DNA from: Escherichia coli
GTDB lineage: Bacteria; Pseudomonadota; Gammaproteobacteria; Enterobacterales; Enterobacteriaceae
Assembly: GCF_003018255.1 (NCBI RefSeq)
Contig: NZ_CP027440.1
Reading direction: 5' to 3' (one strand)
DNA: 64,000 bases
Part shown: positions 63,371 through 64,000 of the stretch, piece after piece
Layout of the letters: the number at the start of each line of letters is the position of its first letter
How positions within the stretch are numbered: position 1 is the stretch's first letter
Program-made: the position numbers and the translations under genes
Notes under the pieces: generated by a model
Seen by the model: only the letters and a program-made list of their open reading frames with translations
Database searches by the model: none
Told to the model about the DNA's origin: nothing

Positions 63371-64000
63371 ATATTATCACTTACTGGCGGCTCATACTGA
63401 GCTGGTTAATGCTGTGCACACACAAACAAGCAATTCCATTTGTAATGTGCCTCCCTGGCAGTTTCATCCGGAACCCGGACGAAAGTAAAAATGCATATGA
63501 GTTGCACTAAAAAAGCGACTCACATTGTTCCGTTATAATGCCTGAAGTAGATCACAGAATATATCTTCAGGAATCGCATATCTATTAAGTTACTCACTCT
63601 TTTGTATTTATGACATGCGCGTGTTTGTATAAATGTAAATGTGAGTCCTTGTTCCACTCTCGTGCAGCATCGCTGGTCATACGCGAACACGTACAAACAG
63701 CAATGGTGAGGCGGCATCAAGAGCAGGGATCCGTCATTTATGCGAGCATTTTACCCCAAAAACCTTTTATTTATAAGGGTCATTGCGAATTATCTGATGC
63801 AAAGTTATGTTATGTTAGGCAAAGTAATCTTCTATTATTAATAAGCACAACAAAACCTTTTTGAATATTAAATAATAATTAATTAGCATCATCCTCATAC
63901 ATTAATCCCGCTTAACAATAGTTTCACACCTTGCACCCATTACGACACCTCGGAAATCATCACGCTGTTAAACTCTCCGTAATGCGGAAATATCATCATC

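Follow-up and report, generated by a model that had tools for sequence, protein, structure and literature searches.

We are highly confident that positions 63371-64000 of the window (the whole 64,000-nucleotide stretch of Escherichia coli DNA analysed here) hold no gene and comprise the lrhA promoter, upstream regulatory DNA and a 371-nt lrhA leader controlled by small RNAs (sRNAs). This control region of a motility repressor gene is non-coding and has been described before. Earlier studies established where transcription starts, how long the leader is, that Hfq binds it, that UhpU, ArcZ and RprA repress lrhA, and that insertions in the spacer affect motility; with the leader and its sRNA control already published, the identity of the locus adds little. 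The value for annotation is that the stretch can be labelled lrhA 5' UTR and promoter, and not empty spacer or a hypothetical ORF pair.

The minus strand of the window carries nuoC, nuoB and nuoA, then lrhA, whose coding sequence occupies 62432-63370. Positions 63371-64000 are the lrhA-proximal 630 bp of the 919-bp spacer between lrhA and the divergent alaA, which starts on the opposite strand 919 bp from the lrhA AUG in both strain 7/2 and K-12 MG1655; the spacer runs 289 bp past the window end to alaA. Many E. coli chromosomes match the 630 bp at every position (630/630), and 5424 of 5426 complete genomes contain the stretch. At the lrhA leader, K-12 and the window differ by scattered base substitutions only, and they share the start site, the length of the leader and the base at the UhpU site. 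The sequence-only reading had described an ORF-poor, AT-rich stretch reaching the window end, and this was borne out: gene annotation is absent in the E. coli genomes inspected, and the G+C content is 38.7% (0.387), compared with 52.2% (0.522) for the whole window and 0.497 for the lrhA coding sequence. Equally AT-rich 630-bp tiles make up 1.5% of the window tiles. Other strongly AT-rich stretches of the window lie at about 8100-8900 and at 44550-45000, where 630-bp tiles go down to 0.316 and 0.373 G+C. The nuoA-lrhA spacer (61803-62431, 629 bp, about 36-40% G+C) is also long and AT-rich, and holds a terminator-like hairpin of lrhA at about 62340-62395.

Conservation was assessed on 80 loci with LrhA orthologues, one genome per species across the Enterobacteriaceae. 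The divergent neighbour is alaA in 78 of the 80 loci, and the lrhA-alaA spacer measures about 850-1010 bp in most of these 78 species (extremes 764 and 1140 bp). The divergent arrangement is kept across the family and its spacer is unusually long, yet few sequence islands are common to species. In coordinates relative to the lrhA start codon, conservation against E. coli is high at the promoter (-419 to -380) and near alaA, moderately high at -560 to -500 and at -99 to -1, and low, with indels, in the middle of the leader (-370 to -100). Because this middle part is poorly conserved between genera, a large share of the leader may serve as spacer and not as functional RNA. Within E. coli, the leader half (63371-63700) is at least 99% identical to the window strain in 4869 of 5420 genomes, and the promoter/upstream half (63671-64000) reaches at least 99% identity in only 815 of 5423; by these counts the leader is the more uniform half within the species.

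The lrhA 5' UTR has been reported to be 371 nt long (Melamed et al. 2023, eLife, PMC10578931). The fusion primer SM079 of that study joins the PBAD +1 to ATAAATGACGGATCCCTGCT, which is read on the minus strand from window position 63741 to 63722. This places the lrhA start site at 63741 and the leader at 63741-63371. The leader and the elements recognized in it are as follows:

63371-63741, minus strand: lrhA 5' untranslated leader, 371 nt, from the published UTR length and primer SM079, starting with the A at 63741.
63376-63380, minus strand: weak Shine-Dalgarno-like GUGAU, read from the sequence, 5 nt before the lrhA AUG (63370-63368).
63428-63437 (-67 to -58), minus strand: near-invariant GGAAUUGCUU motif, at least 90% conserved in a 42-species alignment.
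63462-63484, minus strand: 10-bp hairpin UUUCGUCCGG-GUU-CCGGAUGAAA, found in the minimum-free-energy and centroid folds.

RNA from the 'lrhA-alaA' region had been detected independently, as Hfq-bound species of 150 and 350 nt (Bilusic et al. 2014, PMC4152368), together with an RNA of about 1.5 kb that was seen with an upstream probe and rises without Hfq (PMC4152368). In an older database annotation the lrhA 5' UTR is short, and Bilusic et al. saw no start site there (PMC4152368); in view of this annotation, a second, proximal lrhA promoter may still exist.

The predicted fold of the leader has an energy of -112 kcal/mol (z = -2.4 against shuffles). GUGA is invariant across the 42 aligned species, and GUGAU is the putative ribosome-binding site of lrhA. 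The GGAAUUGCUU motif falls in a hairpin loop of the E. coli minimum-free-energy fold; it is not among the sRNA sites placed here. Directly 5' of the predicted ArcZ site lies the hairpin at 63462-63484, where Citrobacter and Salmonella have differing sequences that look self-complementary by eye. RNAalifold on the 42 leaders recovered no consensus structure, probably due to misaligned hairpin regions.

UhpU, ArcZ and RprA repress a lrhA-lacZ fusion, and RIL-seq chimeras link sRNAs to the lrhA leader (PMC10578931). A point mutation at -16 abolishes control by UhpU and the compensatory pair UhpU-M1/lrhA-M1 restores repression; such compensatory mutants were reported for UhpU alone, and not for ArcZ or RprA (PMC10578931). 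Additionally, MS2-RprA recovers lrhA (MAPS enrichment) and lrhA mRNA falls (Lalaouna et al., PMC5861431). Control by UhpU is reported to be specific to Escherichia. We took the sRNA sequences from MG1655 and placed sites by ungapped seed matching and windowed duplexes. Complementarity to the leader is present in the seed regions of ArcZ, RprA, McaS and UhpU, at these positions:

63383-63389 (-19 to -13), minus strand: UhpU pairing core CGCCAGU, complementary to UhpU ACUGGUG and adjoining the ribosome-binding site.
63408-63421 (-51 to -38), minus strand: predicted RprA/McaS site, core CACAGCA, a near-perfect antiparallel match of 13-14 nt.
63450-63462 (-92 to -80), minus strand: predicted ArcZ site ACUGCCAGGGAGG, pairing with ArcZ nt 66-78 (UUUCCCUGGUGUU).

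The lrhA-M1 gBlock changes GCCGCCAGT to GCCGCGAGT, that is, C-16 at window 63386 (PMC10578931), and the validated UhpU contact is therefore at this base; around it, the duplex probably extends over the CGCCAGU core. The coordinates of the ArcZ and RprA/McaS sites are predictions. RprA nt 60-72 and McaS nt 43-56, both with UGCUGUGUGUA, match -51 to -38 in ungapped seed matching. ArcZ nt 66-78, at the 5' end of the 56-nt 3' portion of ArcZ, would pair with -92 to -80 over 11-13 nt at -16.3 kcal/mol. Over its last 100 nt, the leader has conserved islands that coincide with the sRNA sites or adjoin them: CACAG is invariant in the 42 species, GGAAUU and the UAAGUGA ribosome-binding region reach at least 90% conservation, and Escherichia, Citrobacter, Salmonella and Enterobacter all retain an ArcZ-type AGGGA(G/A) element. 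Two other ways of placing sites were rejected. Whole-molecule sRNA-leader duplex prediction gave energies no better than shuffles and meaningless long-range structures, and ranking by energy alone was misleading, as the best-energy UhpU duplex (-348 to -327) is not the experimentally validated site. As a separate observation, GGAAUUGCUUGUUUGUGUGUG in the leader is similar, in the same sense, to GAAUUGCUGUGUGUAG of RprA.

McaS has the most RIL-seq chimeras with lrhA, yet lrhA-lacZ is unchanged by it, and McaS inhibition was suggested as a possibility (PMC10578931). This result, together with the co-purification of the 150-nt and 350-nt fragments with Hfq (PMC4152368), would fit a leader that, whole or as fragments, works in trans while bound by Hfq, for instance by sponging McaS or other sRNAs. 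We consider such a role unlikely: the fragments are barely detectable in total RNA (PMC4152368) and are expected as by-products of sRNA-triggered decay, and a trans effect has been shown by no experiment. The stretch also has no Rfam family match, none with E <= 1 being found inside 63371-64000; the sole match in 61700-64000 is weak, at chance level, and lies at 62321-62392.

It is very improbable that the stretch encodes a translated small protein or a regulatory upstream ORF. Four ORFs are the candidates:

63520-63720, minus strand: ORF A, 66 aa, TTG start.
63610-63864, plus strand: ORF B, 84 aa, ATG start.
63381-63467, minus strand: 28-aa ORF, ending 10 nt before the lrhA AUG.
From the AUG at -69, minus strand: 15-aa ORF in the lrhA leader.

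ORFs A and B had been listed in the sequence-only reading as mutually overlapping and lacking a Shine-Dalgarno sequence, and both points hold: they overlap on opposite strands at 63610-63720, and a purine-rich Shine-Dalgarno is absent in the 25 nt upstream of each. The length of the longest ORF (84 aa) is that expected by chance, being equalled or exceeded in 13% of 1000 dinucleotide shuffles. ORF A is interrupted by an in-frame TAG in K-12 MG1655. ORF B is intact in K-12, where all three differences are non-synonymous; indels and stops disrupt its frame in E. albertii and in one divergent E. coli genome. Counterparts of either were not found in other genera, and a Pfam search of the ORFs in 63371-64000 gave zero matches. 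The stretch is free of annotated genes in MG1655, strain 7/2 and another 80 RefSeq genomes taken from across the ranking, and a full-text search found no paper linking lrhA with ribosome profiling and small proteins. The two shorter ORFs lie within the conserved last 100 nt of the leader, and a Shine-Dalgarno-like GGGAGG, which is also the ArcZ site, precedes the 15-aa ORF. However, their start codons are replaced (GUG then an early UGA; AAG, ACG or AGG) or absent in other genera, although the nucleotides around them are conserved. The end of the leader is thus conserved at the nucleotide level.

Upstream of the leader, we delineated the following elements (strand is given where one was assigned):

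63748-63776, minus strand: core promoter, with -10 TAAAAT (63753-63748), a 17-bp spacer and -35-like TTATAA (63776-63771), proposed from the sequence.
63784-63797: conserved box TCAGATAATTCGCA, with its centre at about -49.5 relative to the start site, a candidate regulator site by cross-genus conservation.
63790-63829: two tandem 20-bp imperfect repeats (GCAAAGT spaced 20 bp), from a repeat search, 75% identity.
63850-63930 (-560 to -480 from the start codon; -189 to -109 from the start site): distal conserved block, from the alignment.
63867-63883: 17-bp dyad ATTAA-N7-TTAAT of T-N11-A type, 126-142 bp upstream of the start site.
63931-64000: poorly conserved spacer, continuing beyond the window towards alaA.

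The promoter proper takes up only about 63742-63800. The putative -10 matches the consensus at 5 of 6 positions and ends 7 nt before the published start at 63741. It is contained in a block, CTTATAAAT..GGTTTT.GGKTAAGAT, that is conserved in all genera sampled. The -35-like hexamer has 3 of 6 consensus matches, too weak for the consensus scan to list this promoter. A good -10 combined with a poor -35 fits activator dependence of the lrhA promoter. The promoter that the scan did propose, CTAACA-18-GATAAT (63818-63789), was rejected as a misfit to the published start, and the scan total was below that of shuffles.

Further upstream, the conserved blocks at 63784-63797 and 63850-63930 are candidate regulator sites, and their coordinates indicate where sites for LrhA, CpxR and Lrp can be sought. 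The TCAGATAATTCGCA box has one mismatch to what we take to be an RcsB-type pattern, such matches being found 2 times against 1.25 expected; a literature search found no paper on an RcsB box at lrhA. The tandem repeats at 63790-63829, conserved only in Escherichia and Citrobacter, are a possible response-regulator site. In the distal block, which holds TGTGAAA..ATTGTTAAG..ATTAATGAAT, column identity across about 78 non-Escherichia species is 0.5-0.7, dropping to 0.1-0.4 on either side. Scans with consensus strings of CpxR, RcsB/RcsAB, Lrp, IHF, CRP and Fis were all at or near chance. Binding of CpxR and Lrp to the lrhA promoter has been reported, as has direct activation of this promoter by LrhA from a site described as 'not well defined'; the 920-bp lrhA-alaA spacer is among the long spacers with sites for a number of transcription factors (Shimada et al.). 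Dyad-flanked T-N11-A motifs are in modest excess (4 found, 1.04 expected), one of them (63867-63883) being in the conserved block, and we hypothesize that LrhA binds this dyad or the distal block. When DNA upstream of lrhA was compared with that controlling flhDC in search of a common LrhA motif, the only similarity lay in AT-richness, and the comparison was set aside.

The earlier reading had called the stretch likely lrhA promoter/autoregulatory DNA. It was right that the DNA is non-coding and regulatory, with the promoter inside, and missed that 371 of the 630 bp (59%, 63371-63741) are transcribed leader. That all 630 bp could be untranscribed promoter or autoregulatory DNA with LysR-type T-N11-A operators is very improbable, since the reported direct regulation by LrhA of its own promoter, the conserved dyad at 63867-63883 and the older short-UTR annotation are set against a published start site 371 nt upstream of the AUG, Hfq-bound RNA and sRNA chimeras that map to the leader, and loss of UhpU control by the -16 mutation with its restoration by a compensatory change. 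The T-N11-A search that had been proposed as a check is non-discriminating, as the plain motif occurs at chance frequency (65 found, 57.7 expected).

With the stretch read as promoter, upstream regulatory DNA and sRNA-controlled leader, we propose the following course of events. A sigma-70 promoter at 63748-63776, with its weak -35, would be driven by activators bound upstream, for which LrhA, CpxR and Lrp have been reported. Transcription from 63741 on the minus strand would then yield an lrhA mRNA whose 371-nt untranslated leader recruits Hfq. ArcZ (-92 to -80), RprA or McaS (-51 to -38) and UhpU (-19 to -13) would land in the last 100 nt or so of this leader. Pairing of ArcZ, RprA and UhpU would lower LrhA synthesis, with RprA also lowering the mRNA level, and UhpU may act by sitting beside the weak ribosome-binding site. 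Less LrhA would de-repress flhDC and rprA and lead to motility, linking stress, carbon and flagellar signals.

The closest known system is the lrhA 5' UTR of E. coli K-12 (PMC10578931, PMC4152368), which is the same locus; the window has another strain's allele in which nothing substantive differs. The leaders of flhDC, csgD and rpoS resemble that of lrhA in being long 5' UTRs with Hfq binding and several sRNAs (ArcZ, RprA, McaS), and each of these mRNAs, like that of lrhA, encodes a master regulator of a motility, biofilm or stress switch; their leader sequences are unrelated to that of lrhA. The outcome also differs, as rpoS is activated by ArcZ and RprA whereas lrhA is repressed by all sRNAs tested (PMC10578931). 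The lrhA orthologues hexA (Photorhabdus/Xenorhabdus), pecT (Dickeya) and pigU (Serratia) encode LysR regulators and likewise combine a leader targeted by ArcZ with a long spacer to alaA. ArcZ represses hexA and pecT via their 5' UTRs (PMC11331407), while the hexA, pecT and pigU leaders differ from that of lrhA in pairing positions and sequences. Pantoea LrhA represses itself, whereas E. coli LrhA is reported to activate itself.

The best BLAST matches to the stretch carried IS1 inside it. Among 5,426 complete E. coli genomes, the match to a 330-bp probe is interrupted in 49 for the leader half and in 44 for the promoter half. The control counts are 10 for a probe within lrhA, 5 for 62102-62431 and 0 for 61803-62132, a nuoA-proximal probe that is equally AT-rich. 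The nuoA-lrhA spacer is almost never interrupted (5,423 genomes), and the hot region covers 63371-64000 and extends beyond, to about -750. Complete genomes were also searched with chimeric probes joining the first 60 bp of lrhA to either IS1 end, which found IS1 at most 560 bp upstream of the lrhA start codon in 29 plus 51 genomes (about 80 of 5,426). Judged by match span, about 12 and about 14 distinct positions are occupied in the two orientations, giving at least 20 site/orientation combinations. Direct mapping gave the following sites, with 9-bp target duplications at 63818-63826 (both orientations) and 63777-63785 (four genomes mapped):

63505-63517 (approximately; about -135 to -147): IS1 in the lrhA leader of K-12 W3110, by direct mapping.
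63593-63601 (-223 to -231), both orientations: IS1 target site, by direct mapping in two unrelated strains.
63777-63785: IS1 target site, with 9-bp target duplication.
63818-63826, both orientations: IS1 target site, by direct mapping in unrelated strains.

Both orientations in unrelated strains at 63593-63601 and 63818-63826 indicate independent insertion events. The W3110 insertion, located between lrhA and yfbQ/alaA, appears among the listed differences between MG1655 and W3110, and many laboratory derivatives likewise carry IS1 in the lrhA leader at about -135 to -147. We see slightly less than an even chance that the lrhA leader and promoter are a recurrent IS landing zone kept by selection, a mutational switch on LrhA, motility and fimbriae. 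A preference of IS1 for AT-rich DNA, together with tolerance of lrhA mis-expression, could also explain the insertions. Functional precedents exist: Tn5 insertions in the lrhA-alaA spacer give hypermotile ST131, and insertions in the orthologous alaA-pigU spacer of Serratia raise PigU. The Serratia paper also cites insertions over-expressing the regulator in E. coli, and the effect of IS1 on lrhA expression may go either way. The situation recalls the IS upstream of flhDC that switch on K-12 motility, which are likewise recurrent IS in AT-rich regulatory DNA; unlike these, the lrhA insertions strike the promoter or leader of a repressor. If true, a selected IS landing zone at lrhA would be comparable to the flhDC insertions, and the IS enrichment is the sole element here possibly worth separate follow-up. 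The recurrent interruption in natural and laboratory E. coli, including W3110, matters for strain comparisons of motility, biofilm and RpoS. Natural losses of elements for lrhA expression occur as well: in strain 730V1 an IS5 is accompanied by a deletion of about 390 bp that takes away the distal leader and the promoter, and in strain TW10573 the 5' end of lrhA is missing beside an IS1.
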